Positions 32,173-54,476 of a stretch of 64,000 nt of DNA are shown here, piece by piece. Within the stretch, counting starts at the first letter, position 1. Each line of letters opens with the position of its first letter. The stretch spans positions 21,039-85,038 of the forward strand of contig CAYUDC010000001.1 of NCBI GenBank assembly GCA_964443415.1, given 5' to 3'. The DNA comes from an uncultured Chitinophaga sp. (GTDB lineage Bacteria; Bacteroidota; Bacteroidia; UKL13-3). The translations under genes and the position numbers were made by a program. The notes under the pieces are model-generated. The model worked only from the letters and a program-made list of their open reading frames with translations, made no database searches and had not been told where the DNA came from.

Positions 32173-32174
32173 TA

Positions 32175-33967: not shown

Positions 33968-34014
33968 ATAACAAAAAATAAGTTATTTTGCAACCCCACT
34001 TAAATCCAGTTTAT

Positions 34015-36549
34015 ATGAAAAAATTTTTACTTGCTTTTGTTTCTTTTGTACTTTTAAGTTTAGCAAGCTTTGGCCAAGCGGTATTGCCTACGGTTTGGAA
34101 TTTTAGTTCACCTGGCATCAGCACACCACCTGCTGGATGGACACTGGGTTTAGGTACCAATGGTAACCTTACTTACGCCTTTGGAATAGGAGATGCCATC
34201 TCTGCTAGATTAGATGCCACAGGTGAATTTATAACCATTCAGATAGCAGATAAACCAGGTGAATTAAGTTATTGGCTAAGCCCTCAAAATGCTGGAAATG
34301 CATGGGGTGGTCAGTTTGATATTCAAGAAAGCCCTAATGGTACCACATGGTCTACCATTCGTTCTATTACTACAAAAGCAACAACCTCTACCAATTTTAC
34401 TGGTGGCAGATACCTAGAGAATTTACAAACTACTACTAGGTTTGTTAGGTTTTATTATACCACCAAACTTCCTGGAGGCTCTGCTGGAGGTGGGAACATG
34501 GCGGTAGATAGCGTAATGATTAAACCAGCCCCAGCGCCACCAACACCAGGTATACAATTAAAGTTGGGATCAAATGTTCTGGTGAATGGAAATACAGTGA
34601 TCATTGGTAACAATGCCAATACGCAATTTAATTTAACAAACACAGGAACTCAACAATCACTCATTATTGATAGCGCGTCTTTATCTGGACTGAATGCATC
34701 CGATTTTAGCCTTCAAAATTTACCAGATACCATTGTTGCAACAAGCAGTAAAAACTTCTTACTAAATTTTACTGCTGGCGCACCAGGTACTCGCAGAGCT
34801 ACATTAACCTTATTTTCTAACGATCCAGATAAACCAACATTTAGAATATCGCTTTATGCCATAGGCGGAAGTTTGGCCTCTGAGCCTACTGCCCAAGCCT
34901 CGGCAATTAACTTTACCTCCATTAAATCTTATGCATTTAATGTTCAACTAGATGCAACTAGCAAACCTGCTGAGAAGTTTTTGGTGCTCAAAAAGCTTGG
35001 GTCAGACATTACCGAAACTCCAGCAGATGGCATTACCTATACAAAAGGAGACTACATTGGCAGTGCTCAGGTTGAGTTTATTTTAGATTCAAGTTTTAAC
35101 TGGACACCTAATTATATCCATGCCCAGAAGAATTATCATTATGCAGTGTTTAGCTTTAATGGTCCTGCTGGATTTGAAAATTATCTTACTTCCAATCCAT
35201 TAAAAGGAAGCGTAACTACAAGTGGTAGAACACCCGGAAATTATTATGCTGGGATTAACCCAGCAGCTACAAGTTTTGTGAGTGATTTAAGTGCTAGGAT
35301 CAACCCTCATGATACAATTTTTTATAGTAACTACATCTCTAGATTAGTAAATCCATGGTTGGCTAGAGACACTAGCGGTGGCAAAAAGGTAGTTACCTGT
35401 GTTTATACTGGGCATCAGTTTGTGTATTCGGAGCCATTTTTATGGGCCAGTGGAAACAATGGTGCTGTGTTAACGCGTGAGCATACTTGGCCACAAAGTT
35501 GGATGCCAAGCAACCAGGGTAATCCCGATTGGCCAAATGCACCGGGCACCAATAGAGAGTTACCAGAATACAATGATTTACATAATTTGTTTCCGGCCCA
35601 TCAAATAAATGCCAATGCCAGACGCAGCAATAATCCATTTCATGAAGTAGTAACGCCTAGTTATACTTCTCCAACTGGTTTTGGCATGTTGGGTGTAGAT
35701 AGTTTTGGCATTACCTCTTATGAGCCAAGGCCAGAACAAAAAGGTGATGTAGCACGAGCCTTGTTTTACATGGCAGTGGCCTACAATGGGGTTGGGTCAA
35801 AATCATGGTCTATTCCAAATCAGCAATCTTTAAATTTATTAAAACAATGGCATCAAATGGATCCACCAGATGATTTTGAAATTGCCAGAAATGAATTTAT
35901 AGCCGTAACGCAAAAGAATCGTAATCCATTTGTTGATTTTCCAGAGTGGGTAGAAAGAATTAATTTCAGAACCATGGCATATGTGCCAGGGGATAGTATA
36001 CCACCTATACCAAAATCAATTAACATTACCTCTCCTAAGGCAACAGATACCTGGAGAAAAGGAATGGCAGCTAGCATATCTTATACCTTTCAGAACATCG
36101 ATTCGGTAAATATATTTTTTAGTTCAGATTCAATGAAAACATGGACCAATATTGCTGGCAATGGCATAGCCCTGTCTGTTGCAAATAATCCTTTTGTATT
36201 TACACCCCTTAGCTATTTTGACCATCCAACAGGCATTGTGATAGTGAAAGACAAGTCTAGTAATACGGCAGATACCTCAAGCTATTTCTTATTAGAAACA
36301 AGTAATGGATTATTAAATACTATTGGTTCGACCCAAATATTAGCTTATCCAAATCCTTTTGAAAGCCTATTGAATGTAAGGATTAATCAAGCCGGTTTAG
36401 TTAATATTTTCTTAATTGATTTACAAGGAAAAGTACTTGTTCAAACCCATGAGCCTAGAGTTGATACGAGAGAAATTCCAAATGGAGTTTACATCTTAAG
36501 GGTTGAAACTGCTCAAGGCCTTTATTTACAGAAAGTTGTAAAAAACTGA
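34015..36549 (+). CDS. Extracellular endonuclease I (EndA/NucM/Vvn family) domain protein with T9SS type-A C-terminal sorting domain
   Basis: Signal peptide MKKFLLAFVSFVLLSLASFGQA. Three Endonuclease-I motifs appear in the conserved order: REHTWPQSW (EndA EWEHVVPAWQ), DLHNLFPAHQINANARRSNNPF (EndA DMHNLQPSVGEVNGDRGNF), and KGDVARALFYMAVAYN (EndA RGAIARTYFYMRDQY). The C-terminal LAYPNPFESLLNVRIN...GVYILRVETAQGLYLQKVVKN is a T9SS CTD. Confidence 0.75.
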   Translation: MKKFLLAFVSFVLLSLASFGQAVLPTVWNFSSPGISTPPAGWTLGLGTNGNLTYAFGIGDAISARLDATGEFITIQIADKPGELSYWLSPQNAGNAWGGQFDIQESPNGTTWSTIRSITTKATTSTNFTGGRYLENLQTTTRFVRFYYTTKLPGGSAGGGNMAVDSVMIKPAPAPPTPGIQLKLGSNVLVNGNTVIIGNNANTQFNLTNTGTQQSLIIDSASLSGLNASDFSLQNLPDTIVATSSKNFLLNFTAGAPGTRRATLTLFSNDPDKPTFRISLYAIGGSLASEPTAQASAINFTSIKSYAFNVQLDATSKPAEKFLVLKKLGSDITETPADGITYTKGDYIGSAQVEFILDSSFNWTPNYIHAQKNYHYAVFSFNGPAGFENYLTSNPLKGSVTTSGRTPGNYYAGINPAATSFVSDLSARINPHDTIFYSNYISRLVNPWLARDTSGGKKVVTCVYTGHQFVYSEPFLWASGNNGAVLTREHTWPQSWMPSNQGNPDWPNAPGTNRELPEYNDLHNLFPAHQINANARRSNNPFHEVVTPSYTSPTGFGMLGVDSFGITSYEPRPEQKGDVARALFYMAVAYNGVGSKSWSIPNQQSLNLLKQWHQMDPPDDFEIARNEFIAVTQKNRNPFVDFPEWVERINFRTMAYVPGDSIPPIPKSINITSPKATDTWRKGMAASISYTFQNIDSVNIFFSSDSMKTWTNIAGNGIALSVANNPFVFTPLSYFDHPTGIVIVKDKSSNTADTSSYFLLETSNGLLNTIGSTQILAYPNPFESLLNVRINQAGLVNIFLIDLQGKVLVQTHEPRVDTREIPNGVYILRVETAQGLYLQKVVKN

Positions 36550-36801
36550 GTCAATAGATTGTGATTTTTTTACAGTTTCAGTTGAATTGAATCAATGTCA
36601 AAACATTAATTTTTTCTTATAAATAGTATTTATTCCGATAAAATTTTCTAAATTTGATTATATGAACTTTGTTTATTCAAAAAAATTATTTTACCAAACT
36701 CTGATAAAACTTGATTATTGGAGGACCATGATTTGGAATGAATAGAAGCTATTTTTAGCCCTATTTCATTTGGTTTTTACATTTAAACAAATCTTTATTT
36801 T

Positions 36802-39800
36802 ATGAAAAAATATATACTTAATCTACGAAGCATGTTAGCTTTGGTCATTCTCCTAGTAGGTCTAGGTAATGACTTGCGCGCGCAGGTTTACCTGCTCGAA
36901 AATTTCGACAGCGCATTTGTGGGTACACCAGGAGCGCCTCCTGGATGGACTCAAACCCGTTTTGATTATTGGGGTGATGGCACTCCAACTGCAATTAATG
37001 TGGCTGGTCCAAAAGACTGGCAGAGAAACCGTTTAATTTCTTCTGGCTTTTGGTCTTCGCAGAGTTTTGGTACTATACCAAGCGCTGCTGTAACAGATTC
37101 AGGAGCTCTTTGGCTCGAAGATTACTATTTTGGAACACAAACCAATATGTTAAGCAGAAGGATTGAGTCGCCAGCTATTAATCTTTCAACAGCTACTTCG
37201 CCTTATTTGCGATTTAACATGTTTTTTGCTCAAACTGCCAATTACACGTATCCAATTATTGTAATGGCATCTAATGATAATGGTGCTACATGGAAATCTA
37301 TCATGCATGTTCAACCTAATGCAGATGTGGTTACTACTTCTACAACTGGCGCAGGTACAATGAATGCTGCTACACCTTGGCAAAAAATAACCATCCGTAT
37401 TCCGGATGCATATAAGGTACCTAATGCTAAGTTTGCCTTTTACAGAAACAATCCATATAGCTTTAACTCAAACCCTTTCATTGATAGTTTAACTATCGAA
37501 GAATTTACACCAACCACTATTACTTCTGCACAAAGTGGTAACTGGTCTGATCCATTAACTTGGGTTGGTGGAATTGTACCTAATGCTAATAATCACGTAG
37601 TAATTGATGCAAATCATACAGTTACTTCAAATGTGAATATTTCTCGTATGCAAAATTTAACCATCAGTGGTGGTGCATCGTTTTTATATTTTTCTTCTTC
37701 TTTAAATACAGTTTCTCAAATTTTTGGAAATTTAACCATCAACTCTACTGGAACATTTAGCCTTGGAACTACTGCTTCATCTACCATTAATAGATGGGTG
37801 TATATTGGTGGAAGTTTAACCAATAATGGCACCTTGAATACCGGTACTGGAACGGGAAGTGTTGTATACATGACAGGTGGGCAATTGAGCACCTTTACTA
37901 ATAATGGTACTATCTCAAACGGCTATATCTCTGGTATGTATTTTGCAAATTCAGGGGGTGTGGAGTTTAACGGTAGTATGACCAGTAACGTGGTAATTAG
38001 AAATTTAACTTTCCTTGTAGACGGTCCTGTAATTCCAAATGGTAAACTAACTTTAGGTATCACCGGAAACGTACATACAATTACACGCGGTAATAATACT
38101 GCGTTCTTTACCCAAAGACCTATTTATCCTCCTTTAGGTACCTCACTTCGTTCGGTAACTTATGGAGGTGGAACGAATGGTAACCCTACAATGGGTATTT
38201 TCTATAAGGACACTATTTTTACTGGATTTGAAACTGATACACTAGCTACTGGAGTTCAATTTATCAGAGGTACATTAACTGTTTTCACTCAGAATCATGT
38301 TAAATTAAGTGCTCCACTTCAAATTGGTGATACTGTTGGAAGAACAACGACACTTTCTGCTACCAATGCTGGTGGATTAACTACATTTAGTCGTGGTATC
38401 TTATTCACCGATGATGTAAATATCTTAACCGTTGGTCCAATTGGAAATGGTTCTTTAGGGGTTGACCCAAGTTTAAATAATTTAAATCCACCCACTACAC
38501 ACGGATCCTATATTGTTGGGCCAGTTAGATTTGTTAGACCATTATCAGGTACTTTAACCTCTACTTTAAGTGTTCCGTTAGGATACGGAAGTCAATACTT
38601 AGCGTTAAGTACACCAAATAATGCTAGACGTTATTTACAACTTACCGCAGGTGGAGGTTGGGCCGGACAGATTATCACTTTCCGCGCTCTAACAAACCCA
38701 TCTGGCGCGGTGAGTGCACCACAAACTTCTTTACTAACCAATCGTTTATACAGAATTGAGTTAGCGCCAGGTCAAAATTTGCCAGCAACCTCATTATTAA
38801 CCGCCATCACTAGAATAGAAGGTGGTAATAGCAATGCAGATGCTTTATTGGGAAACCAAGATCAATTATTCTTAATGCAAAGTACCAGTCCAACTGGACC
38901 TTGGGTGCCAAGAAATGTAGCGGCTGGTGCCGGTGCATTTGTTATTAATACATTATATACACGTCAAACAAGTGCATTATCACCTGGACCAATTAGTGGT
39001 AATGGTGAATATTTTGCATGGGCCTCTTCTGCACCATTAATGAACTTTCAGAATGGAGATGTAACCAGAGAGGTTGCCCCAGTTTCTATTGGTGCCCAAG
39101 ATATGCCAATGTTAAGAGTTAGGGTTAATGTTAACGGTACCATCCCAACTAGGGTAACTAACCTTGATTTTACGCCTGCTGGAACTTCTAACCTTGCAGC
39201 AATTTCATCAGCAAAGGTGTATTATACAGGTACCTCACCGGTATTCAATAATTCTACTCAGTTTGGCTCTACAGTTACCTCTGTAACTGGTGTTACTTCT
39301 GTTACAGGAAACCAAGTATTACAATCTGGCGATAACTATTTCTGGATTGCTTACAATGTTTCAGCTAGTGCAGTCTTGGGTGATAGTTTAAGTGCTAACC
39401 TAAACAGCATTACAGCAGTTGACACAGCAAGAACTTTAGTTACTACACCTGCTACAGGCTTTAGAATTGTAAGTGCTCCAATGACTTTTGTTTCTGCAAC
39501 AGCAGTTCAATTGAATGCAGCAAGAGTAGAGCGTGGCGAACAGGGAGCTGATATCATGCGCATTAATGTAAATATGTCGGCAACTGGTGCTCCGATTCCA
39601 TTGAATAGTTTGCGTTTAAACACCAATGGGTCAGGTGCCACTACCAACATCACACAAGCTCAAGTTTATTATACAGGTAACTCTACCACATTTAACAAAA
39701 ATCAATTAGTAGGAACATTTAATAGCCCAAGTGGAGCATTCATCATAAATGGAACCCAAAATCTATCTAATGGCGATAACTATTTTTGGGTAGCGTATTC

Positions 39801-42800
39801 TGTATCTGCTACAGCAATCTTAGATGATTCTGTTGATGTTGAGTGTGATTCGATTTCTATAAGTGGAGTAAACAGACCTGTAAGTCCAATAGCTCCAGCT
39901 GGAAATAGGCTCATCCGTGCGCCATATTGTAATAGCGCTGCAACTACTACTGGTGATGAGGAGATTTGGAATGTTACTTTTGGTTCAATTAACAATACCT
40001 CAAACTGTACAACCTTAGCCCCAGGGCCTGGTTCGGTGAATAGCATGTATTCAAATTATACCACTTCTATTGCACCTCCTAGTATTCCTGCTGGTTTGCC
40101 TATACCAATTAGTGTTAATGCTGCAAGTTGTGGTGGTAATTATCCTTCAACCTTAAGGGTATATATCGATTATAACCAAAACGGTGTTTTTGATTTACCT
40201 GGTGAATTAGCTTATTCTAATAATTCATTTACTTCTAGCACTGCAGGTACAACCATTTTAACAGGAAACATTACTGTTCCATGTAGTGCTTTACCTGGAA
40301 ACACAAGAATGAGGGTTGTATTAGATGAAACTTCTGGTGCTCCGGCTTGTGGTACTTATACTTGGGGAGAAACAGAAGATTACACCATTAATATTGTTGC
40401 AGGAGCTTCAACTTATACAGCTTCAAATGCTATTCAATTTACAGGTACAACTTCTGCCGGATCATCAGATGTTAGGGTATTGAGAGTGCCAATTAAGGTA
40501 TCTTCTTCACCTTGTAATCCTGGTGTTATCACACAATTAAGATTTAATACTGCTGGTTCTACCAGTGCTGCAGATATCGTTTCTGCTAAATTATATAAAA
40601 CTGGAAGCTCTAACATATTTAGTATTGCTAATCTAGTTGGTACTGTAGCCGCTCCAAGTGGTCAGTTTTCATTCACCGTAGCAGATACCGCTGTAAATGA
40701 TACCAACAATTATTGGTTAGCCTATGATGTAAGTGCTACTGCTACCGCATCAAATGTTTTAGATGCTAGATTTGATAGCGCCGAAGTATTTGGTGCTTGG
40801 TACACCCCAATTAATGGAAATCCTACAGGAAATTTAGTAATTACTGTTCCTATGGCTTATATAGGTTCAAGTGTTATTCATACAGACTTAGGAATGGTAG
40901 AAAGACCTTCTGTTAATAATAGAATGTTGCGTGCGATGGTAATCATGGGTTCTACTGGTGCACCAGTATCAGTTACTCAGTTTAGCTTAGATGCCAATGG
41001 CGGTGGTGATGACACCTCAAATATTGCTAACGTAAAAGTATTCTACACCGGAAGCAGCGCAAATTTTGCTTCAACCAACCAGTTTGGTTCAACTTTCGTT
41101 CAAACTACACCTACTGGTAATAAATATGGTGCCTTTAATATTAATGGTATCCTTAACCTGGCCAATGACACCAACTACTTCTGGGTAACTTATGATATTA
41201 AGTCTACCGCAATATTAGGTGACTCAGTTGACTTAGAAATGTCAGGCATTACCATTGCGGGTGTTAATAGAACTCCATCCACCACGGCTCCGGCGGGCAA
41301 TAGAAAAATTCGTGCTCAATATTGCGCCAGTGGTGCTACCTCAACTTTTGATGAGGAAATTTGGAATGTTACAGTTGGTTCGTTAAATAACACTTCTACT
41401 TGCGCTACCACAGCTCCAGGCCCTGGTTCTGTAAACAGCCAATACTCAAATTATTCTGGATTTGTTGCTGCTCCAAATTTGGCTGCAGGATTGCCAATTC
41501 CATTTAGCGTAAATGCAGCAAGTTGTAATGGTAATTACACTTCAATGTTGGGTATTTACATAGACTATAACCAAAATGGAATATTTGACTTGCCAGGTGA
41601 ACTTGCTTATGCTAGTGGTACATTTACCTCAAGTACAGCCGGAACACAAATAATTACTGGTAATATTACTGTACCATGTACTGCAATGCCTGGTATAACC
41701 AGAATGCGTGTGGTATTAAATGAAACTACCGGTGGTGTTGCACCATGTGGTACATTTGCTTGGGGTGAAACCGAAGATTATGATGTAAACATTGTATCTG
41801 GCGCTCCATCGTTCCGCAGTGTTAGTGTGAACCAAAATACAGGAACTACTGCTGCCTCAGCTACCGATGTTAGGATTTTAAGAATTCCTGTGGTTATGAC
41901 ATCATCGCCTTGTAACCCAGCTATTATAGATGGATTCTCTTTCAATACTGCTGGTTCTACTGCTGCTGCTGATATTGCAAATGCAAAATTATATGTAACA
42001 AGAAATTCTGGTGTATTTAACAATACCAACTTGCTTGGAACAGCAACTAGCCCTTCAGGCCAATTCACATTTACTGTGGCTGATACCTTAAATAATGATA
42101 CCAATTTCTATTGGTTAACCTATGACGTAAGTGCAACTGCTACCAATAGCAATGTGTTAGATGCTAGATTAGATAGTATCAACTTGTTAGGAAGCTGGCG
42201 TGTGCCTGCAAATGGAAACCCTGCTGGAAACGTAGTGATTGCCACTCCTATGACTTATTTAGGAAGTGCTGCTATACATCCAGAACAAGGTATCGTAGAA
42301 ACAGGAGCAGTTAATCAAAGAATGTTACGTGTAATGGTTAGAATGAGTTCTATTGGCGCTCCTGTTGCATTGACCCAATTTAACTTAAATGCAAATGGAG
42401 GTGGAGATGATACTTCAAACATTGCCAATGTAAAAGTATTTGCAACAGGCAATAGCCCAGTATTCTCAGCCGCTAACCAGTTTGGTACCACTTTCGTTCA
42501 AACTACACCTACCGGTAATAAGTGGGGTGCATTTAACATCAATGGTACCATTAACTTAAATAATGATACCAACTACTTCTGGGTAACTTATAATATTAAA
42601 TCTACTGCCATCATTGGCGACTCTGTAGATGCAGAAATTACAGGTTTAACCATTGCAGGTGTTTCTCAAACTCCTACCAATACTGCTCCAGCGGGCAGCA
42701 GAAGAATTAGAGGTCCTTATTGCGCTAGTGCCGCTCAGTTTGCTGGAGATGGAGAAATTTGGAATGTAACAGTTGGTTCGTTAAATAACACTTCTAACTG

Positions 42801-45800
42801 TACTGTGGCTGCAACAGGCCCTGGTTCTACTTTAAGTTTATATTCTAACTATACTCAATCTATCAATGCACCAAATTTAGTGGCTGGTGTTTCGATACCG
42901 TTCTCTGTCCATACTTCAACTTGTGGTGGTAATTACAATGGTGTATTGGGTATTTGGATAGATTTGAACCAAGACGGTGACTTTACTGATGCGGGTGAAA
43001 CCGTTCATATGACTCCAACTTTCTTATACGGGACAACCGTATTCCGCACAGGTAATTTTGTGATTCCTTGTACTGCCACTCCTGGTACTACAGTGATGCG
43101 TGTGATTTTAAATGAGACTACTGCTTCTCCAATTTCGCCTTGTGGTTCTTATTTCTATGGAGAAACAGAGGATTATATCGTAAACATTGTTAACGCTGCT
43201 CCTGTATTTAATGCAGTTTCAGTAATACAACAAACTGGTACAACAAGCGCTGGTGCTACAGATGTTCCTGTATTACGTGTTCCTATCAGAGTAACTTCTT
43301 CTGCTTGTACTCCTGGAACAGTAAATGAATTTAGATTTAACACGGCTGGTACAACTACTGCTGCTAACATTGTTACGGCTAAACTTTACAAAACAGGTAA
43401 TACAGGTGTATTCTCAAACACTAACCTGGTAGCTAGTGTTACTTCACCAAGTGGCGCATTTAGCTTTACTGTAACAGATACCTTAATTAATGATACCAAT
43501 AACTATTGGTTAGCCTACGATGTTGCTACAACGTCTGCAAACAACAATACGTTAGATGCAACTTTTGACAGTGCCAATGTTTATGGTAATTGGGTAGTTC
43601 CTGCTGTGAGCAATCCTACTGGTAATGTGGTTATCTCTACTCCAATGACCTTTGTAGGAAGCGATGTAAGCCACCCAGATGCGGGTATGGTTGAAACTGG
43701 TTCTGTAAATAACAGAATGTTAAGAATTAGGGTTCGCATGAGTTCTACTGGTGCACCTGTTTCATTAACTCAGTTAAACTTAAACACAAATGGTGGAGGT
43801 AATGATACTTCTAACATTAATAACTTGAAAGTATTCTATACTGGAACGAGTGCAAATTTTGCCACTACCAACCAGTATGGATCAACTTTTGTGCAAACTA
43901 CACCAACAGGTGCAAGTTGGGGAGCCTTTAACATTAATGGCTTGGTTTCACTTGCCAACGATACCAATTATTTCTGGGTTACTTACGACATCAAAGGAAC
44001 TGCCATCGTAGGCGATTCGGTTGATGCAGAATGTACAGGAATGACTATTGGCGGTGTTTCTCAAACACCTTCGAATACAGCGCCTGCTGGATCAAGAAAA
44101 ATTAGAGTGCCTTATTGTACAAGTGCAGCCCAATTTGCGGGTGATGGCGAAATCCTAAATGTAACTGTTGGTACTTTAAATAACACCTCTAATTGTACTA
44201 CTGTTGCTCCTGGTGCAGGTTCAGCTTTGAGTTTATATTCTAACTTTACTTCTTCGGTTACCGCACCAATTATGAATGCAGGTGATTTAGTTACATACGA
44301 TATTCATACAGCAACTTGTAATGGAAACTACAATGGTGTTATGGGTATTTGGATAGACTTTAACCAAGATGGTGACTTTACGGATGCTGGTGAAACTGTT
44401 GTGATGACTCAATCATTCCTTTATGGTAATGGTGTGTATCAAACAGGTGCCTTCTATATTCCATTGAATGCTACTACTGGTAGAACTAGAATGCGTGTCA
44501 TCTTAAATGAAACTACAGCTTCTCCAATTTCTCCTTGCGGTACCTACTTCTATGGAGAGACAGAAGACTATACCATTGAGATTTTACCTGCACCAAATAC
44601 AACCTACCTATGGAACCAAACAAGTGGTGGTAGCTTAATTTTACCTACCAACTGGACTCCATCAAGGTTAAAAGCCAACCTTTCAGATAAGTTAATTATC
44701 AATACTGGTAATACAGGTGCATTTACAGGTGCTGGTAGCCAAATTGTTCGTGCCATTGAATTAGGTGCAAATACGGTTGCTAACGTTGCTGGCAATGCTG
44801 CCATTGTTGTAGTTACCGATTCATTGGTATTTGGTAACAACGCTAGAATTGTTACTAACTCAAATACATTGGTATTGGGTAGAGATACTTCAAGTGTAGG
44901 TGCATTGCAAGTAGGAACTGCTGCTGGTATAGCTGGTAATTTCACTCGTTGGTTTAATAGTACTTTGAATCCAATTAGTTTCCCATTAATTACAAGTGCT
45001 GGATTAAGTAGAGTAATGGAAGTTAACTATACCACTGCTCCTACCACAATCGGTTCGTTGACAGCTTCATTTGTGCCAACAGCGCCAGGTAATAATGGCT
45101 TACCACTTTATGATAGTACTGCCTTCTTTACTATTAATAGAGCCGGTATCGATGGATACTGGTCATTGTTGCCAAGCAATGGTACTGCAGCTGGTACTTA
45201 TAATGTAAGTTTAAATGCGACAGGTTTTACAGGTGTATCTAACTACTTACAATTGGTTGCTATTAGAAGAAATACTGGTACTTCACCTTGGACATCTAAT
45301 GGTGTTCATGTAACTGCAACTGGTTCTAATGCGGCTCCTATTGTAAATCGTAACAATGTTAATCAATATGGTGATTTTGGTATCGGTGGAGATACTGCTG
45401 TTAATCCGTTACCAGTTGAAATGTTATCATTTACTGCAAAAGCGATCAATGGAGATGCATACTTAAATTGGTCAACTAGCATGGAGATCAATAATAAGGG
45501 CTTCTTCGTAGAAAAATCTATCGATGGTGTTAACTTTAAAGATATCAACTTTATAGCAGGACATGGAAATTCTAAAGCTGTTAGAAGCTATCATTTAGAA
45601 GATCAAAATGCCTTTGCATTAACTTCAACTGTTTATTACAGATTAAGACAAGTTGATTTTGATGGCACAACTAGCTATTCAAAAGTTGTGAGTCTTTCAG
45701 AAAATGACCTAGTATCGGATGCGGTTACCATGTTCCCTAATCCGTTCTCTGAATCAATTGGAATTAGCTTTGTTTCATCGGTGAGCGGTGAGGCGGTTGT

Positions 45801-45969: not shown

Positions 45970-45996
45970 TTTTTCAAGCTTTTATTTAGATAGAAA

Positions 45997-46026
45997 GGCG
46001 GCTGATGATTCAGCCGCCTTTTTTTT
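45997..46026 (+). terminator. Rho-independent terminator downstream of the 3055-aa gene
   Basis: Stem GGCGGCTGA, loop TGAT, stem TCAGCCGCC. A run of 8 T follows, about 28 nt after the stop codon. Confidence 0.7.
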
Positions 46027-46166
46027 GTTTTTTGCAAATTTTTAATCCACACATTATCAACTATTAATCATTACATTAATTTCCTCTTAAAAAAATTGAC
46101 AATAGATTATTGCGTGAATGTTTACAAATATTTTAAATTACGCATCAAACCAAATCCTAATAATAT

Positions 46167-49100
46167 ATGTTATACATCTCCTCTAAACGATTTCGAGAAT
46201 TTTGGGTCAAACCAATATTTTCGATTGTTGCCATTTTACTAATGGCATCTGGGCTTTATGCTCAAACAAACATAGCCCCTTTGGCTACTGCTTCCGCGTC
46301 TTCCTGTATGACCGGACCGTGTAGTGCATTTAATGATTTAAACTATGGTACTTGTGGGACGCAATTGGTGTGGATTTCTACATCTGGCCCTCCTGCCGGT
46401 ACAGAATGGTTAGAGTTTACCTGGCCAACTACGCAAGTGTTTGACAAAATTACCATTCACCATGCCCAAACCACTGGCCGCTTTTTGGCGGGTGGAACTA
46501 TTCAAGTTTGGAATGGTACTTCCTACGTTAATCACCACACTTTTTCTGGATTGAACCAAGCGAATTGTGTGAATGATGTAAGTTTCTTACCGGTAGCCTC
46601 AACAAGACTACGTATTACTGCTTTTGTAATGGGTACAGGACAGAACTCTAACCCAAACTTTCGTGAAATTGAAGTTTGGAGAGGTTCTCTTTCAGGCAAT
46701 GATGTTGGTATAGCAAGTATTGATTCAGTTGGAACCGTTTGTTCAACAACTGCAATTCCTGTCTATGCCACTATTCAAAATTTTGGTACCAACCAAGTTA
46801 CCTCTGCTAATGTTTTATGGAGTGTAAATGGTGCGTTGCAATCAGTTATCCCTTTTACTGGCACTTTGGATACTGCTGGTGGAGCAGGTTCCAACAAAGC
46901 TACAGTTCTACTTGGCACTTATGGTTTCTCGCCTACCAATTCTGTTATTAAAGCTTGGACTAGTCAACCTAATAGTACAGCTGATACCATAAGAGTTAAT
47001 GATACTGCTTCAGTAACTAAATCAATTGCACTTGCTTCTGGTACTTATACTATTGGTGGAACTGCTCCAGACTTTGTATCGTTTACTGCTGCTAGAAATG
47101 CTTTATATGCTCGCGGTATTTGTGGCCCTGTTACTTTTATAGTAGCCAATGGTACCTACAATGAGCAAGTAGATTTTACTGGTCATATTTCTGGCGCTTC
47201 TGATGTTAATACCATTACTTTTAGAGGTACTAGCAGAGCAGGTACTATTCTTAATTTTGCTTCTACAAATACGGCTCAAAGGCATACGCTTCTGTTTGCC
47301 TCTAATGCGCGTTTTATCACCTTTAGAGACATGACCATTCGTGGTAATGGTAATTTTGCTGGTGATTTTGCCTTTACTTTAATTATTAACAGTGGTGCCA
47401 GAAGCATTAGAGTGGCCAATTGTGATATCTTAGTTGCAGGTGCTAACTCATTATCTGGTACAACAAATTATATCCCTGTGTTACTTGGTGGTACTTCTTC
47501 TTCTTATTCTTCTGGTAGCAGAGTGGATAGCGTAGAAATTGATACTTGTTTAATTAGCCGTGGGTATTTTGGTGTAGTGAATTATGGTGTTTCTGGTAAC
47601 CTAGGTTTGAACGTAAAGTTTAGAGGATGTTTATTTAAAGAAAACTATTACTATGGATATTACGGTGTTCAAAATGGTAACTTAACTTTAGAGAATAACG
47701 ATTTCCAATTACAAACTGCTACCACTGGTATTACTCCAATTTATGTTTCTACTGCTACTGCACCTACCAATTTTCATCACAGAATTGTAGGTAATAAAAT
47801 GAGAGAAATAGGGTCTTATGCTATGGCACTCTTTACAGTTACAAATCCATCAACTGGTAAAGGTTTAATTGCAAACAATGCCATTGGTGGTGCGCAAATT
47901 TCTACAACTGGTTATGGAATTTATATGAGTGGCTGTAGCAACTTTATGATGTTGCATAACTCTGTAAATTTAAATATTGCAGGATCTACCAATGCAATTT
48001 ATGCAGGTATATATATTACCAGTGGTTCTGGAAATAGTATCATTAATAATAACCTTGCTAGAACTGCTTCTGGTGCTGGTATGCCTATGTATTTAGTGAC
48101 AAGCGCTGTAAGTGATACTTGCGATTACAATAACTATTTTAAGGTAGATACTGTGAGCGGTTTAATTTATAAAGGAGCTACCTATATGCCTGCTACCTTT
48201 AGGGGCACAATGGCTAAGGATAGCTTCTCTTTAAATAACCCTCCTGGATTCTTAAGTGCTACCAATTTAAATATCAATGTGCCTTGTAATAAAGGTATGG
48301 CTTTACCTGTGGTACCAACTGATATCAATGGTTTAGCTCGTTCTATTACTGCTCCAAATATGGGTGCTTACGAAATGTTAGCGCTTAATAATAACATTGG
48401 TATTGAAAGAATTCTTGCACCAACGCCAACTACTTTCACCATTGGAAGTAATGATGTTTGGGCTTTAATTAGAAATACTGGTATTAATACAGTAAGTAGT
48501 TTTGATGTTTCATACACCAATAATGGCGGTACTCCAGTGACACAATCGGTTACTGCTACATTGGCCGCTTGTGATACCATTAGTGTATTGTTTACAGGTA
48601 CCAATCAAGTAACTTTAGGTTCAAGCAATAAATTAAAAGTTTATACCAGCGGACCTAATGCAAGTTTAGATTCATTCCCTGCTAATGACACCTTGGTGGC
48701 TGATTTATATGCTCCGTTAAGTGGTAACTATACTATCGGTGGCAGCACTGCAAATTTTGCCAACTTTACTGCCGCTGTTAATGCCCTTAAAGGTGCTGGT
48801 ATTGCTGGGCATGTTACTTTTACCGTTAATCCTGGTACTTATAATGAATTTGTGAACTTAGATGGAACAATTTTAGGTTTACATGATACTGCAAGGGTAT
48901 TGTTCAGTGGTGTGGATAAAAACACTGTGATAATAGAAGCTAACAGAGGTTCTGCACCAGTGGTGGGTATTTTTGGACATCGTTATATCACCTTTAGGGA
49001 TATGACCATTAGAAATACTTCTCCTTCAGGTACAGGTTTTGCCATTGTAGGAAATACTACCAACAATGCTGGTACTGGTTGTGGAATCATTAATTGTATT

Positions 49101-52100
49101 GTTGATATGCCAAATGTAACCACAGCTACAGCTTATGGAATATTGGCAACAGGTACTGCCTCTGGTTATGGAATTGGAGCTATGCGCGCTGATTCAATTA
49201 CCATTGATTCAAATGTGGTAAACAAATCTTTCTATGCTATAACTGTTTATGGTGCTACCAATGCATTGTATAACCGTTTTATTAGAATTAGAAATAATAC
49301 CTGTAACAATATTTACTATATGGGTGCATATGTTGCTTATAACTACAATGCCATTGATTTTATAGGTAACAAGTTTACCATGGATCCTACCTATGGTTAT
49401 TATGGGGTTTATTATTATGCTAACCAAAATGCGAGTGCAACTGTGCCACATAGATTCCACGGTAATACTGTTATTAATCACGGTGGTTATGGCGCCTTCT
49501 TGTATTTCCCAACCACTAACAGTGCAAACTCGGCTATCACAGAAGTGTATAATAACATGATTGTATCTGGCCCAACCTATAACTTTGTGTATGGTATCTA
49601 TGTGCAAGATCAATCTTCTTCTAGATCAAGAATTATTCATAATACCTCTGTAAATAGATATCCTACAGGTACGGTGAGTTATGCTGCTATCGGAACAACT
49701 GGTTCTACTCAGGTGGTGGTTAAAAATAATATTTGTGTAAATTTAGCTGGTTCGGCTGCTCCTGCCTACTTTGCTACCAACCCTGCTGCTGGTAATGTTA
49801 ACCATAATATTTATTGGAATACTGCTGGTACTGCATTGGTTTTTAGAAACGGAACGTATTGGAACGCCTCTAACTTTAAAACTGCTACAAATGGTGGTGA
49901 CTCTTCTCACAACATTAACCCAGATTTAGTGAGTGCCACAGACTTACATACTACTAGTGCTTGTTTGCCTAAAGGTGCTGATTTCTCAGCATTTTTAACC
50001 ACAGACATTGATGGCGATGTAAGAACCATTCCAAGTATGATTGGTGCTGATGAGGTGGTGGGTATGAGCAACGACCTTGAAGTTGTTTCTATTCTTGCTC
50101 CTTCTATTCCTGTAAGTTTAGGTGCACAAGACCTAAAAGTGTTGGTTAAAAATAGAGGTACTAATACCGTTACTAGCTTTAACGTTGCTTATAGTTTAAA
50201 TAATGGTACTCCAGTGGTATTAGCCTACAGTGGGTCTGGTTTGTCTTCTTGTCAATCTGATACCATTACCTTTACGGGTACTAACCAAATTACCATTGGA
50301 ACTGGTGTGAACAATGTAAAAGTTTATACTTATGCTCCAAATGCCAGTGCAGATAGCAATCCTATTAATGATACTTTAGGAGCCTCATTGGCAGCGCCGC
50401 TTTCTGGTAACTATATTGTGGGTGCGGCTCCTTCTGACTTCCCTTCTTTAACAGCTGCATTGTTGGCTGCCAAAACAAGAGGAATCGCAGGTAGAACTAC
50501 CTTCTTAATGAAATCAGGTGTATATACTGGTAACTATGCTGTTGAGCCAATGCCTGGAACTTCTGCTACCAACACAGTAAATATTGAATCATTAACTGGT
50601 AACCGTGACGATGTAAGATTTGAATTCTCAAATGATGCTTCAAATCTTCAGGTATTTAACATCTCTGCAAGTTTTGTAAACTTTAGAAATGTAACCATTC
50701 GTCAAACCAATGGTAACCTAACCTCTACCAATACTATTGTGAGATTTAATGGCGCACCTACCAACGACTCTTTAGTAAATTGTGTGGTTTGGGGACCTAT
50801 TTTTGGAGTAGATGGAAATAGCACAGCTAGTTATTCTCTGTATGCTACAGGTATCAATACCAATAGATTGATTTTTGAAAACAACTATTTCAAAGGTTCT
50901 TTCTATGGAGCTTATTTCTTTGGAAATAATGCAAACTACTCTGTTAAAAATACTGAATTTATTGGTAATACTTTTGACAGTGTGACCTATGGTGCTTTAT
51001 ATTACTTATACTATACTACTGGTACAAAAGTTATCAATAATATCTTTAATCATAGGGTAATTGGTGGTACTTACACCACTGGCTACCAGTATTGGTATTA
51101 TAATGACTCAGGTTATGTATGTACTAATAACAAAGTTCAAACCTTTGGTGGTAAGAGTTTATATTGGTACAACTATTATAGTAGAAATGCTGCTTCAAAC
51201 CCTTCTATCATTGCCAACAATGATGTAAATGGTGCTTCAGCCTTTATTTATTGGGCATTGTTTGGTAGTGTTACCAATAACCAAAACTTCTACCATAATA
51301 CAGTGCATTCTGGTTCAAATTATACTTACTTTAATGCAACTGGAAATAGCAACGTAAAAGTGTTTAACAACATTTTTGCTGCTTCGGGTACTTATTCATT
51401 GTATTGGTCAGGTGCACCTGCAGGTATTGCTCAAATTAATACCGATTACAACTTGTATTTTACAACAGGTTCAACTACTCCAATTTATGCAACAGCTGCA
51501 AGAACTCTGGCAGCCTTTAAAGGAGCCTACCCTACGTATGATAGAAACTCGGTGCAAAATAGAGCTCCGTTCATGAGCAACGCTAACCTTATGCCAAATG
51601 CAAATGATACAAATGTATGGTTAATCAATGGCAGAGGTGTTCATAACACTATATCTCCTATAGATTTTGTTGGTGTAACCAGACCAGCTTCTGTATTAAA
51701 TGGTGCGCCAGATTTAGGTGCCTACGAAGTAACACCTTCTATTAGCACTTTGGCTCCTTTAGCAACTGTTGTTCCTGCCATTCCAGTAGCGGGTGGTACT
51801 CAACATTTCTTAGTAGGTCAAGACTCTGTAGCTAAAATCACTTGGGATCCATTTACTTCTTTACCAACTAATGTTTCATTGAGATATTATACTGGCGAAC
51901 AGCCAAATACTCAAGGTGCTACTGGTAAAGCCATCAATGCTTATTATGATGTGAAGTTAACAGGCTCTGGCTTGTTGTATAATTTAGACTTGCATTATAA
52001 AAATACCCTACGTGGAAATATTGCTGCTCAAGGCGATTTAAGAATGGCTAACTATCCTGTGGGTTCTTGGAATTACTTAGGTGCAAGTGTAGTGGATAGT

Positions 52101-54476
52101 ACCAGATTAATGGTAAGTACCACGGGTATTTCTGATACAAGTGCCGTTTGGACTTTAACAGATGCTACCGATCCACTAACTACTTTCTTAAATATTACTG
52201 CTCAGCCTCAAAGCACTACTAAATGTACTGGAGATTCTGCTGTATTCACAGTAGCTGCAATTGGTACTGGTTTATCTTACCAATGGCAAGTGAATACTGG
52301 TACTGGATTTACCAATATTACAGGTGCTACTTCAACTACTTTGGTAGTGAATAGTCTTACTACTGCATTTAACAACTACAAATACCGTTGTGCTATTTCT
52401 AACTTAACAGGTACTGCTCAGTCTAACGAAGCTACCTTAACTATTGGCTCTAGCACTAACATTACCACCCAACCAATCAATGCTGCTGGTTGTCAAGGAG
52501 ACAATGCAGTGTTTACTTTAGGTGCTACAGGTAGTAACTTGGCTTTTGAATGGCAAGAAAACACTGGTTCTGGTTTTGCTACCATTACTGGTGCTACAGG
52601 TTCAACCCTTATCAGAGCAAATATCCAAGCTGCTATGACTGGTTATACTTATAGATCTATTGTTACTGGTGCTTGCGGTGTGAGAACTTCAGATACAGTA
52701 TCTTTAACAGTAAGTGGTCCAATCTCTATTACCACTCAACCAGCTCCAACTACTGTAAACACTTGTGCAGGTTCAACTGTCAATATTACCATGGTTTCTA
52801 CTGGTGCCACTACTTATCAATGGCAAATTGATGTGGGTAGTGGTTATGCAAACATTCCTAATGGTAATGGTGCAAACCTTAGCATTGCCAATGTTCCGGC
52901 TAGTTACAATAATGGTACTATCCGTTGTGTGCTAACCAATGCATGTAATACTACTTTTAGTAATACCGTTTCTATTACCGTTCAAACTCCTGGTTTATGG
53001 AGTGGTGTAACAAGCACTGCTTGGACAACTGCTAGTAACTGGGGATGTAGCGCAGTACCAACTGCTACTACTGATGTGGTAATTCCTGGTTCTGCTGTAA
53101 ATATGCCTGCTGCAAGTACTGCAGTTAACATGCGTTCATTAACAGTTGATCCTTCTGCTACCATTACTTTAAGTGGTGCTGGTGCGCTTAACATTTACGG
53201 AAACCTTACCAATAATGGTACAATTTCTGGTGCAAATGCATGGGTTAACTTTATGGGAACTGCTGCACAAACCATTAATGGTGGTACTTATAATAGAGTT
53301 TCTTTAGACAATGCTGCTGGTTTAACTACTACTGCTGCTTTAACCATTAATGATACCTTACAATTAGTAAGTGGTAAAGTAACTTTAGGTTCAAACAATC
53401 TTACCATTGGATCTTCAGCTAGATTGCTAGGTAACTCTGCTGCTAACTATATTGTAACCAATGGAACTGGAAGTTTAGTGATGAATAACATCGGTACTTC
53501 TGGTAGAACTGGTGCTATTGTATTCCCAGTGGGTACAGCAAGCAATTACAATCCAGCTACTTTAAACAATACAGGTGTTGCAGATAACTTTGCAGCTAGA
53601 GTAATAACAGGTTCATATCCTGCCTTCACTGGAAGCACACCTTCGGGTGCTGCCTACACCAGCAACGTAGTAGATGCTAACTGGATTATCGATGAAGCTA
53701 TTCAAGGTGGTTCAAACTTGGTGGTGAGCTTACAATGGAATGCTTCGCAAGAGCTTCCAAGCTTTACTAGAGCTTCTTCATACATTGCTCGTTACTTAGC
53801 AAATGGTTGGAACAATGCTGCTGCTTCTGCTGCAACAGGTGCCAATCCTTATGCGAGCACTGTAAGTGGTATCACTGTTTTAGCTCCAATGGGTGTAGGT
53901 TCAAACGGAACCCTTCCTGTAAGCTGGCTATCATTTACTGCTAATGCCAATGGTATGGATGCGGTATTAAATTGGGCAACTGCAACAGAGATAAATAACA
54001 AAGGATTTGAAGTAGAGCGTTCATTAGATGGCTCAATCTTTAAAACCATTGGTTTTGTTGAAGGTAACATTAACAGTGGTTCTGTTAAGAACTACAGATT
54101 TACTGATAACAGAGCGCTTGAAATGTTTGCTGGTGCTAGCGTTTACTATCGCTTAAAACAAGTTGATTTAGATGGAAACTATTCTTATAGCAACATCGCC
54201 CTATTAAATACTGAAGAAGGTTCTGATATTAGCTTATATCCTAATCCATTTAACAGTACTACGGGTGTGTATGTAAATGCTACCGAGGATGCCAATGTTA
54301 CCATCGAAGTGAAAGATTTAATGGGTAGAAGCATCGCTTTAACTACTGCTTCAGTTGTTAAAGGTGGTCAATACCTAACTATCGAAGCACTTTCAACTGT
54401 GGCTGATGGTATGTATTTAGTTCAAGTTGAATTAAATGGTGAACTTAAATCTTTCAGAGTTCAAAAGACTAAGTAA
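46167..54476 (+). CDS. Giant (2769 aa) T9SS-secreted protein: discoidin-like domain, 3x (CARDB-like + right-handed beta-helix), 3x Ig-like, T9SS CTD
   Basis: Signal peptide. The N-terminal F5/8-type-C-like domain begins NIAPLATASASS, continues ...EWLEF...FDKITIHHAQ..., and ends REIEVWRG. Three ~1.69 kb super-repeats start at 46698, 48400 and 50070. Their beta-helix rungs show N-N-x-(F/I/V) ladders (NNNLART, NNMIVSG, NNICVN, NNIFA). Three Ig-like repeats follow (ITxQPxxxxxCxGxxAVFTVxAxGxxLxYQWQ). The pre-CTD module is shared with the upstream gene. The CTD ends LYPNPFNSTTGVYVN...GMYLVQVELNGELKSFRVQKTK. Confidence 0.85.
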   Translation: MLYISSKRFREFWVKPIFSIVAILLMASGLYAQTNIAPLATASASSCMTGPCSAFNDLNYGTCGTQLVWISTSGPPAGTEWLEFTWPTTQVFDKITIHHAQTTGRFLAGGTIQVWNGTSYVNHHTFSGLNQANCVNDVSFLPVASTRLRITAFVMGTGQNSNPNFREIEVWRGSLSGNDVGIASIDSVGTVCSTTAIPVYATIQNFGTNQVTSANVLWSVNGALQSVIPFTGTLDTAGGAGSNKATVLLGTYGFSPTNSVIKAWTSQPNSTADTIRVNDTASVTKSIALASGTYTIGGTAPDFVSFTAARNALYARGICGPVTFIVANGTYNEQVDFTGHISGASDVNTITFRGTSRAGTILNFASTNTAQRHTLLFASNARFITFRDMTIRGNGNFAGDFAFTLIINSGARSIRVANCDILVAGANSLSGTTNYIPVLLGGTSSSYSSGSRVDSVEIDTCLISRGYFGVVNYGVSGNLGLNVKFRGCLFKENYYYGYYGVQNGNLTLENNDFQLQTATTGITPIYVSTATAPTNFHHRIVGNKMREIGSYAMALFTVTNPSTGKGLIANNAIGGAQISTTGYGIYMSGCSNFMMLHNSVNLNIAGSTNAIYAGIYITSGSGNSIINNNLARTASGAGMPMYLVTSAVSDTCDYNNYFKVDTVSGLIYKGATYMPATFRGTMAKDSFSLNNPPGFLSATNLNINVPCNKGMALPVVPTDINGLARSITAPNMGAYEMLALNNNIGIERILAPTPTTFTIGSNDVWALIRNTGINTVSSFDVSYTNNGGTPVTQSVTATLAACDTISVLFTGTNQVTLGSSNKLKVYTSGPNASLDSFPANDTLVADLYAPLSGNYTIGGSTANFANFTAAVNALKGAGIAGHVTFTVNPGTYNEFVNLDGTILGLHDTARVLFSGVDKNTVIIEANRGSAPVVGIFGHRYITFRDMTIRNTSPSGTGFAIVGNTTNNAGTGCGIINCIVDMPNVTTATAYGILATGTASGYGIGAMRADSITIDSNVVNKSFYAITVYGATNALYNRFIRIRNNTCNNIYYMGAYVAYNYNAIDFIGNKFTMDPTYGYYGVYYYANQNASATVPHRFHGNTVINHGGYGAFLYFPTTNSANSAITEVYNNMIVSGPTYNFVYGIYVQDQSSSRSRIIHNTSVNRYPTGTVSYAAIGTTGSTQVVVKNNICVNLAGSAAPAYFATNPAAGNVNHNIYWNTAGTALVFRNGTYWNASNFKTATNGGDSSHNINPDLVSATDLHTTSACLPKGADFSAFLTTDIDGDVRTIPSMIGADEVVGMSNDLEVVSILAPSIPVSLGAQDLKVLVKNRGTNTVTSFNVAYSLNNGTPVVLAYSGSGLSSCQSDTITFTGTNQITIGTGVNNVKVYTYAPNASADSNPINDTLGASLAAPLSGNYIVGAAPSDFPSLTAALLAAKTRGIAGRTTFLMKSGVYTGNYAVEPMPGTSATNTVNIESLTGNRDDVRFEFSNDASNLQVFNISASFVNFRNVTIRQTNGNLTSTNTIVRFNGAPTNDSLVNCVVWGPIFGVDGNSTASYSLYATGINTNRLIFENNYFKGSFYGAYFFGNNANYSVKNTEFIGNTFDSVTYGALYYLYYTTGTKVINNIFNHRVIGGTYTTGYQYWYYNDSGYVCTNNKVQTFGGKSLYWYNYYSRNAASNPSIIANNDVNGASAFIYWALFGSVTNNQNFYHNTVHSGSNYTYFNATGNSNVKVFNNIFAASGTYSLYWSGAPAGIAQINTDYNLYFTTGSTTPIYATAARTLAAFKGAYPTYDRNSVQNRAPFMSNANLMPNANDTNVWLINGRGVHNTISPIDFVGVTRPASVLNGAPDLGAYEVTPSISTLAPLATVVPAIPVAGGTQHFLVGQDSVAKITWDPFTSLPTNVSLRYYTGEQPNTQGATGKAINAYYDVKLTGSGLLYNLDLHYKNTLRGNIAAQGDLRMANYPVGSWNYLGASVVDSTRLMVSTTGISDTSAVWTLTDATDPLTTFLNITAQPQSTTKCTGDSAVFTVAAIGTGLSYQWQVNTGTGFTNITGATSTTLVVNSLTTAFNNYKYRCAISNLTGTAQSNEATLTIGSSTNITTQPINAAGCQGDNAVFTLGATGSNLAFEWQENTGSGFATITGATGSTLIRANIQAAMTGYTYRSIVTGACGVRTSDTVSLTVSGPISITTQPAPTTVNTCAGSTVNITMVSTGATTYQWQIDVGSGYANIPNGNGANLSIANVPASYNNGTIRCVLTNACNTTFSNTVSITVQTPGLWSGVTSTAWTTASNWGCSAVPTATTDVVIPGSAVNMPAASTAVNMRSLTVDPSATITLSGAGALNIYGNLTNNGTISGANAWVNFMGTAAQTINGGTYNRVSLDNAAGLTTTAALTINDTLQLVSGKVTLGSNNLTIGSSARLLGNSAANYIVTNGTGSLVMNNIGTSGRTGAIVFPVGTASNYNPATLNNTGVADNFAARVITGSYPAFTGSTPSGAAYTSNVVDANWIIDEAIQGGSNLVVSLQWNASQELPSFTRASSYIARYLANGWNNAAASAATGANPYASTVSGITVLAPMGVGSNGTLPVSWLSFTANANGMDAVLNWATATEINNKGFEVERSLDGSIFKTIGFVEGNINSGSVKNYRFTDNRALEMFAGASVYYRLKQVDLDGNYSYSNIALLNTEEGSDISLYPNPFNSTTGVYVNATEDANVTIEVKDLMGRSIALTTASVVKGGQYLTIEALSTVADGMYLVQVELNGELKSFRVQKTK
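46698..51740 (+). repeat. Three tandem ~1.69 kb super-repeats (CARDB-like Ig domain + parallel beta-helix) inside the 2769-aa gene
   Basis: Unit starts are NDVGIASIDSVG (46698), NNIGIERILAPT (48400) and NDLEVVSILAPS (50070). Each is followed by ...PLSGNY(T/I)(I/V)GG...FxxxTAAxxAL...GIAG.VTF..., then beta-helix rungs. Confidence 0.7.
52190..52990 (+). repeat. Three tandem Ig-like repeats (~85 aa each)
   Basis: The repeats begin ITAQPQSTTKCTGDSAVFTVAAIGTGLSYQWQ, ITTQPINAAGCQGDNAVFTLGATGSNLAFEWQ and ITTQPAPTTVNTCAGSTVNITMVSTGATTYQWQ. Each ends in a (Y/I)RC...N motif. Confidence 0.7.

Follow-up and report, generated by a model that had tools for sequence, protein, structure and literature searches.

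The stretch of DNA studied here, hereafter the window, is a 64,000 nucleotide (64 kb) part of contig CAYUDC010000001.1 of an uncultured Chitinophaga sp. (Bacteroidota, GenBank: GCA_964443415.1), and all positions refer to it. Head to tail on its plus strand lie three genes for predicted Type IX Secretion System (T9SS) cargo proteins, called gene 1, gene 2 and gene 3. Gene 1 encodes an Endonuclease I, gene 2 a giant protein with modules of BNR_assoc_N and GEVED domains and gene 3 a giant protein with modules of CARDB and beta-helix domains. The comparison with related genomes points to a nuclease that belongs to the conserved chromosomal backbone and to giants that occupy a slot of variable content beside it.

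34015..36549, plus strand: gene 1, predicted T9SS-secreted multidomain Endonuclease I, 844 amino acids (aa); from Pfam, NCBIfam and the ENA gene call
36802..45969, plus strand: gene 2, giant predicted T9SS cargo, 3055 aa; from Pfam, repeat anatomy and an AlphaFold2 (AF2) module model
46167..54476, plus strand: gene 3, giant predicted T9SS cargo, 2769 aa; from Pfam, repeats and an AF2 module model

An earlier description of this DNA, the sequence-only reading, had reported three co-oriented open reading frames (ORFs), which the ORF listing places on the plus strand at 33988-36549 (853 aa from a TTG), 36802-45969 (3055 aa) and 46167-54476 (2769 aa). The shared orientation stands, and the start of gene 1 at 33988 had to be corrected. 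The gene call in the ENA record (ERZ4209337 NODE_166, a metagenome contig of 106 kb) starts at the ATG at 34015 (MKKFLLAF..., 844 aa) and the orthologues begin there too, so that this ATG, 27 nt from the listed position, is most likely the real start.

Export signals of the three proteins

The C-terminal domains (CTDs) of all three proteins were detected by the two type A models with their curated cut-offs of 27 bits (Pfam: PF18962) and 23 bits (TIGR04183). PF18962 scored 36.8 bits for gene 1, 38.5 for gene 2 and 29.6 for gene 3, and TIGR04183 scored 42.7, 38.8 and 29.3 bits, respectively. The matches stop 2-11 residues from the C-terminus. At the other end of the proteins, signal peptides were read by eye from the translations, namely MKKFLLAFVSFVLLSLASFGQA in gene 1, MKKYILNLRSMLALVILLVGLGNDLRAQ in gene 2 and ...PIFSIVAILLMASGLYAQ in gene 3. 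By inspection, each of these N-termini has a basic n-region, a hydrophobic core and an A-x-A/AQ-type cleavage motif. By the curated CTD models and the predicted Sec signal, the products of genes 1-3 are classified as T9SS type A substrates. This agrees with the sequence-only reading, which had described a signal peptide and a type A CTD in all three and would have given this up if the C-terminal 80 aa had failed to match CTD models; all three match both.

A fourth type A cargo gene lies at 13957-14877 on the plus strand (306 aa, PF18962 E-value 7.9e-15) and adjoins an M23 peptidase gene. There are therefore four CTD proteins in the window, which indirectly suggests that the organism uses a T9SS repertoire.

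A conserved backbone with a slot of variable content

The synteny of the locus was compared over about 35 related metagenome-assembled genomes (MAGs), using the genomic contexts of orthologues and 30 further loci from species-representative genomes, found by means of the nuclease alignment (labelled L0xx below). The compared genomes are without exception MAGs of uncultured organisms, mostly recorded as Bacteroidia, Bacteroidota or Bacteroidetes, and they represent different species-level lineages with 55-77% protein identity.

On the 5' side of the slot, the backbone consists of UvrA, a response regulator, a histidine kinase, a 198-aa protein, DUF2851 on the minus strand and the nuclease on the plus strand. 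On the 3' side it continues with a convergent methyltransferase gene (54568-55350, minus strand), DUF2461, a chorismate-binding enzyme, a 4HBT thioesterase and a hybrid kinase. The interval from nuclease to methyltransferase is between 6-9 bp and 18 kb long and was found with five different contents. It is empty in L010-L013, where the stop codons of the two convergent genes are 6-9 bp apart. It holds gene 2 alone in L003/L004 and L018, a chimeric giant in L016 in which beta-helix modules are followed by BNR/GEVED modules, gene 2 with gene 3 in the window and L007, and gene 2 with a different giant of 4283 aa in L002. A gene 2 orthologue also follows the nuclease in L019, L021, L024 and L033, where the locus ends before the methyltransferase.

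Furthermore, the giants are found away from the nuclease. Gene 3 orthologues stand alone in unrelated neighbourhoods in L008 and L009 (64% and 41% identity), and a gene 2 orthologue without the nuclease is present in L005 (48% identity). The sequence-only reading had suggested that the three genes, if they encode a nuclease and two paralogous adhesin-like giants, look like a dedicated surface, biofilm or predation module. The compared MAGs hold no fixed trio, which does not support that view. Because every component occurs without the others, the co-location is better described as a variable slot beside a core gene than as an obligate functional unit.

Judged by the nuclease tree, the ancestor of the lower clade seems to have had gene 2, which was then lost once, and the content of slot 3 changes. 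L002 is 73% identical to the window in the nuclease and 77% in gene 2, L007 is 67% and 69% identical, and gene 3 is shared with L007 (77%). The same flanks carry alternative contents in related genomes, which is the pattern of a replacement-type island, here between species-level relatives.

A classical mobile island was considered and rejected, as no integrase, transposase, tRNA or flanking repeats were found and there is no clear GC shift. The GC content of the region is 0.38-0.40 compared to 0.35-0.37 in the flanks (a difference of about 0.02-0.04). All repeats found are internal to the giants, and the window has no tRNA genes.

Several further observations were made at the compared loci. 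L003 has a stretch of about 550 bp without a long ORF (19100-19650) between the terminator of its gene 2 orthologue and the methyltransferase, and a tblastn search of this stretch for a remnant of gene 3 found none. In both L002 and L003, a gene for a 72-aa PspC-domain protein separates the histidine kinase gene from those for the 198-aa protein and DUF2851; at this position the window has 254 bp (31921-32174) in which the record calls no gene. The records of L011, L014, L021, L025, L026, L027, L030 and L036 carry the Bacteroidia block but bear names of organisms in which it would hardly be expected (Chitinophaga pinensis, Vulcanococcus limneticus, uncultured Bifidobacterium sp. and Candidatus Methylacidiphilales), and they are probably mislabelled or mis-binned MAGs.

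The Endonuclease I protein

Gene 1 is composed of the following parts.

aa 1-22: signal peptide
about aa 23-172: discoidin-like N-terminal domain
aa 193-272: choice-of-anchor-D-like sandwich
aa 479-644 (window 35449-35946): Endonuclease_1 domain (Pfam: PF04231)
aa 778-844 (window 36346-36546): type A CTD

The Endonuclease_1 domain scored 110.8 bits (cut-off 25, E-value 1.2e-31, aa 479-644), which bears out the earlier suggestion that gene 1 encodes a nuclease. Further sandwiches also surround the nuclease domain in the Pfam and NCBIfam annotation. We aligned the protein to the solved Vvn nuclease (PDB: 1OUO, 1OUP), including the region of the Mg-binding Asn (DLHNL...N..RSN). The Asn stretch NDLHNLFPAHQINANARRSN of gene 1 lines up residue by residue with ADLHNLTPAIGEVNGDRSN of Vvn. 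R488-E489-H490 (REH), which lies inside the Pfam match, is invariant in three orthologues, and N532/N534 (N..N.RRSN) are invariant in orthologues as well. REH may be the equivalent of the EH motif with the catalytic His of Vvn, going by the motif rather than by the alignment.

The E. coli-type deoxyribonuclease I equivalog model (NCBIfam: NF011716) gave 32.4 bits for the whole gene 1 protein and has a cut-off of 372. By these model scores gene 1 is classed as a member of the PF04231 domain family that lies outside the E. coli-type equivalog. Its homologues form at least 370 clusters, and those listed are mostly 830-960 aa long and nearly all combine Endonuclease_1 with Por_Secre_tail. The gene 1 protein would be a His-Me-finger nuclease that requires Mg and cuts nonspecifically, and to which beta-sandwich and discoidin-like domains have been added. 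Its most likely role is the extracellular degradation of DNA or RNA for nucleotide and phosphate scavenging.

Two giants of different architecture

Gene 2 is built around four modules of 465 aa.

aa 1-27: signal peptide
aa 28-235: Reelin-B/discoidin-like head
about aa 253-735: G8-like region
39007-40401, 40402-41799, 41800-43194 and 43195-44589, plus strand: four 465-aa modules
45397-45705, plus strand: pre-CTD domain
45730-45966, plus strand: type A CTD

Four GEVED domains (Pfam: PF20009, 247 bits, E-value 1.7e-74) and five stretches of BNR_assoc_N (Pfam: PF14873, 223 bits, E-value 2.1e-66) were annotated on the protein, and the guess of the sequence-only reading that PF20009 would be present proved right. 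Each module combines two BNR_assoc_N domains, which are sandwiches like the carbohydrate-binding modules (CBMs) of sialidases, with one Cys-containing GEVED domain. The modules are 49-75% identical to each other in protein sequence; the DNA has a period of 1395-1398 nt with 60-81% identity. An AF2 model of module 2 shows three beta-sandwiches with a mean confidence (pLDDT) of 85.5. Its solved structural neighbours include the N-terminal CBMs of Bacteroidales sialidases (PDB: 4bbw, 8t24, 7qxo) and multi-sandwich stalks. From the likeness of the modelled fold to sialidase CBMs, the modules of gene 2 may bind carbohydrates.

About 22 full-length orthologues of gene 2 (P0001-P0022) were found in Bacteroidota MAGs. 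They have either three modules (about 2530-2610 aa) or four (about 3000-3060 aa), and in a subgroup of 3390 aa the N-terminal region is doubled and three modules are present. In one NCBI assembly the orthologue is represented by two ORFs of 1529 and 1481 aa (P0177, P0178), probably owing to a frameshift or an assembly break.

Gene 3 has three modules of a different kind.

aa 1-33: signal peptide
aa 34-174: DUF7402/discoidin-like head
46689-48380, 48381-50060 and 50061-51764, plus strand: three 560-aa modules of CARDB and right-handed beta-helix
52191-52991, plus strand: three Ig-like repeats (89 aa)
53901-54206, plus strand: pre-CTD domain
54234-54473, plus strand: type A CTD

The modules are 26-39% identical to each other. 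In the AF2 model of module 2 (pLDDT 86.7) a CARDB-like sandwich is followed by a right-handed parallel beta-helix, and the Foldseek neighbours of the module are beta-helix carbohydrate-active enzymes as well as the CARDB domains 3idu and 2kl6. The enzyme matches are at the level of the fold only, with template modelling (TM) scores of 0.23-0.53 and 9-15% identity. The protein's own match to Beta_helix (Pfam: PF13229) is below the cut-off (21.2 compared to 25.9 bits), and its homologues carry PF13229, CARDB (Pfam: PF07705) and NosD (Pfam: PF05048). As modelled, the modules of gene 3 contain beta-helix and CARDB domains. Most of the conserved positions belong to a ladder of stacked Asn residues and to a D..R..G..E motif near the C-terminal end. 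More than 417 homologues come from Bacteroidota and KSB1, and the 118 of them with at least two long module matches have 2-7 modules per protein.

The sequence-only reading had raised the possibility that the two giants are paralogues, which we reject. In a BLASTP comparison they are similar only over the last 187 aa (41% identity), and their bodies differ in architecture, with BNR_assoc_N and GEVED modules in gene 2 and CARDB and beta-helix modules in gene 3. The shared tail consists of the CTD and a pre-CTD domain of about 100 aa, whose two copies are 52% identical and follow the consensus LPVxxLSFTA...EINNKGFxVExSxDG...VYYRLxQVDxDGxxSYS. Sequence searches of Pfam, NCBIfam and the PDB gave neither a family model nor a solved relative for this domain. 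A profile built from the two copies detected it in 95,339 representative proteins at E <= 1e-3 and in 54,824 at E <= 1e-10. Where a match has a single copy, about 85-91 residues typically separate the end of the domain from the C-terminus, and in all nine small single-copy proteins sampled Por_Secre_tail starts about 10 residues after it. Moreover, up to 16 copies of it can follow each other in a tandem array. The annotation of T9SS cargo in general would gain from a family model and a structure of the pre-CTD domain.

Besides proteins with one kind of module, there are chimeric giants in which CARDB/beta-helix modules as in gene 3 are joined to BNR_assoc_N/GEVED modules as in gene 2. Examples are the protein P0065 and the giant of L016 (12763-21036), which sits in the same chromosomal slot as the giants of the window. 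They show that modules shuffle between the two giant families. For the architecture of the two giants of the window, literature searches on GEVED and on giant T9SS proteins turned up no paper.

Inside the giants there are three antisense ORFs of 108-134 aa (41778-42104, 44604-44945 and 49209-49613, minus strand). They are called neither in the record of the window nor in the loci of gene 2 and gene 3 orthologues that were checked, and are most likely chance ORFs.

Terminators, a putative promoter and a leader motif

The following transcription signals were annotated around the giants.

45992..46033, plus strand: gene 2's intrinsic terminator, with a T-run after a G+C-rich hairpin of 14 bp (45992-46023)
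54498..54531, both strands: bidirectional intrinsic terminator of gene 3 and the convergent methyltransferase gene, a perfect 17-bp palindrome
36649..36656, plus strand: putative promoter box of gene 2, TAAATTTG, which matches the Bacteroidota -7 element TAnnTTTG, 146 nt upstream of the start
36734..36745, plus strand: 12-nt motif TGGAATGAATAG in the putative leader of gene 2, invariant in the window, L002/L033 and L007

Terminators had been placed at 45997-46026 and 54505-54527 by the sequence-only reading. Both are real and far more stable than shuffled sequence. The terminator of gene 2 has a folding free energy (dG) of -23.9 kcal/mol and a z-score of -7.05 compared to shuffled sequence, and in L003 and L007 the orthologues of gene 2 likewise have a terminator of this kind behind them. 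The palindrome at 54498-54531 was overlooked by a simple terminator scan and detected by other inspection and folding. It lies between an A-run and a T-run, with the G+C core and T-run at 54505-54527, and folds alike on both strands (dG about -25 kcal/mol, z-scores -7.3 and -9.0). In the window, the terminator scan and folding found no terminator in the 252 bp gap between gene 1 and gene 2. The nuclease has its own terminator in L003/L024.

The gaps upstream of the two giants are AT-rich as had been described, with 77.8% and 74.1% A+T. The same reading had proposed that each giant has its own promoter, and this is supported for gene 2. Among the three upstream gaps, the one before gene 2 holds the single perfect match to TAnnTTTG, and a box of the -7 type is kept at the same aligned position in L002 (TAAATTTG) and L007 (TACTTTTG), and thus in three loci. 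Gene 2 probably has its own promoter, as suggested by this conserved box. No perfect box precedes gene 3. The 12-nt motif occurs nowhere else in the window or in 39 loci. Both box and motif are conserved in three genomes (window, L002 and L007) whose proteins are merely 67-77% identical. An RNA element in the gene 2 leader was considered and dropped, as there is no Rfam match and RNAalifold gave -5 kcal/mol without covariation. A scan for sigma-70 promoters gave fewer matches than in shuffled sequences and is uninformative for a Bacteroidota genome.

Interpretation

We interpret the locus as a set of independent T9SS type A cargo genes, in which a core nuclease of the backbone stands beside a variable slot of accessory giants. 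We assign this reading a probability of roughly 0.7. As such the locus is an ordinary T9SS cargo cluster of a well-known kind, and the nuclease and the giants would not be functionally coupled. Following the established T9SS route, each protein would cross the inner membrane by Sec via its N-terminal signal peptide. The CTD would then be recognised by the T9SS, and the protein would pass the outer membrane via the SprA/Sov translocon, be handed over to PorV and finally be released or anchored on the cell surface. Export by way of a type A CTD depends on PorV, and fusion to such a domain can make any periplasmic protein exportable (PMC10202324). Genes 2 and 3 would encode unrelated long, modular surface proteins, each with a discoidin-like head, sandwiches or beta-helices, a pre-CTD spacer domain and the CTD. 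They most likely act as extended glycan-binding adhesins, and as accessory genes they would fill the slot between the nuclease and the convergent methyltransferase.

Several points weigh against this interpretation. None of the T9SS core components SprA/Sov, PorV, PorU and GldK/L/M/N is encoded among the about 40 ORFs of the window, so the T9SS competence of this genome is deduced solely from its cargo. The pair of nuclease and gene 2 is kept over several sub-clades (window, L002, L003, L007, L014, L018-L021 and L024). As the pair recurs and no terminator separates the two genes in the clade of the window, some functional or transcriptional coupling between them is possible. Moreover, in gene 3 the likeness of the beta-helix modules to carbohydrate-active enzymes is as strong as that to adhesins.

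Alternatively, the three genes could form one attack or biofilm module, in which the giants fasten the cell to prey, algae or particles and the nuclease then breaks down DNA that is released or part of the matrix. The genes are adjacent and co-oriented, a second genome (L007) has the same trio, the pair of nuclease and gene 2 recurs in several sub-clades, genes 1 and 2 have no terminator between them in the window, and for other phyla a link between giant surface proteins and adhesion to prey has been described (bioRxiv 10.1101/2023.11.21.568195). However, the nuclease is kept without any giant in L010-L013, its stop abutting the convergent methyltransferase. Gene 3 orthologues also stand alone beside unrelated genes, gene 2 occurs without the nuclease, L002 carries another giant in slot 3, strong terminators of their own follow genes 2 and 3, and there is no regulator or machinery gene specific to the trio. 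We therefore regard such a module as improbable. A more plausible alternative, although still a doubtful one, is a replacement-type flexible island, in which homologous recombination in the conserved flanks exchanges the giants and phages or grazers exert the selection, so that difference itself is valuable and not the ligand. Such islands are known as giant gene regions in freshwater Polynucleobacter (PMC5644125). The identical flanks with five alternative contents fit this explanation, as do the shuffling of modules between giant families and the three or four modules of gene 2. L002 is closer to the window than L007 in nuclease and gene 2, yet it is L007 that shares gene 3. On the other hand, the compared genomes are species-level lineages and not one population, and slow lineage-specific gain and loss explains the pattern equally well. 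In addition, the nuclease tree suggests an ancestral gene 2 with one loss, and the giants diverge about as much as neighbouring non-housekeeping genes. A bolder extension, to which we give very little credence, is that the interval between nuclease and methyltransferase is a dedicated exchange site, where freshwater Bacteroidia rebuild giant adhesins from a shared module kit and the pre-CTD domain is a required, so far undescribed part of the export signal of very large cargo. The kit would then comprise beta-helix units, CBM/GEVED units and an export cassette of pre-CTD domain and CTD, and the site would give population-level surface diversity against phages or grazers.

The remaining alternative concerns the function of the giants and not their arrangement. 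Gene 3, and possibly gene 2, may primarily be an enzyme, that is a multi-catalytic polysaccharide lyase, hydrolase or epimerase of repeated beta-helix units. In the structure comparison, the closest matches to the gene 3 module are without exception carbohydrate-active enzymes with a beta-helix (GH87, GH28, CE8, PL6, AlgE4 and RbmB), and PF13229 and NosD are present in the homologues. At the TM scores and identities given above, however, the likeness is to the fold, and the protein's own PF13229 match remains under the cut-off. The invariant positions over 17-20 modules are mainly Asn-ladder and Gly residues, which are typical of structural stacking, there is no conserved acidic or basic cluster in the body of the helix, and no CAZy-type family model matched. 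An enzymatic role is thus unlikely, and we prefer to describe both giants as probable adhesins in a variable slot beside the core nuclease.

Runs of T9SS cargo genes, giants included, are common in environmental Bacteroidota and need not form a functional module. Comparative synteny tells the core, predicted secreted nuclease from the accessory giants, the probable adhesins, and the locus illustrates clearly what a variable giant gene slot looks like in abundant, uncultured lake Bacteroidia.

Comparison with known systems

Like the T9SS type A substrates RemA, an adhesin of F. johnsoniae, and the gingipains of P. gingivalis, the products of genes 1-3 combine a predicted Sec signal with a type A CTD, and large modular passengers with lectin-like domains are also found in both cases. 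The passengers differ from those of characterised T9SS cargos, with four modules of the order BNR_assoc_N-BNR_assoc_N-GEVED in gene 2 and three of CARDB and beta-helix in gene 3.

Gene 1 shares PF04231 and the conserved metal-binding Asn stretch with the Endonuclease I family (Vvn of Vibrio vulnificus, EndA and Dns of V. cholerae). Vvn has about 230 aa, whereas gene 1 has 844 aa and four extra beta-sandwich or discoidin-like domains. Vvn-type enzymes are disulfide-rich, and the nuclease domain of gene 1, as read from the translation, has only one Cys. The T9SS-transported Endonuclease I of Riemerella anatipestifer has Mg-dependent DNase and RNase activity (PMC12398890), and its export route is the one proposed for gene 1.

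In the module model, the sandwiches of gene 2 superpose on the N-terminal CBMs of Bacteroidales GH33 sialidases, namely BTSA (PDB: 4bbw), PG_0352 of P. gingivalis (PDB: 8t24) and NanH of T. forsythia (PDB: 7qxo). Unlike these enzymes, gene 2 is without the sialidase beta-propeller catalytic domain, and its CBM-like domains stand in tandem, in eight or more copies that alternate with Cys-containing GEVED domains.

As a locus, the slot is most comparable to the giant gene region of Polynucleobacter (PMC5644125) and to the flexible surface islands of aquatic bacteria, in which giant surface-protein genes are likewise found at a fixed position, with varying content and without mobility genes. In contrast to Polynucleobacter, the variation at the slot is documented between species-level relatives, the giants are 8-13 kb long compared to a gene of 42 kb, and their predicted export route is the T9SS.

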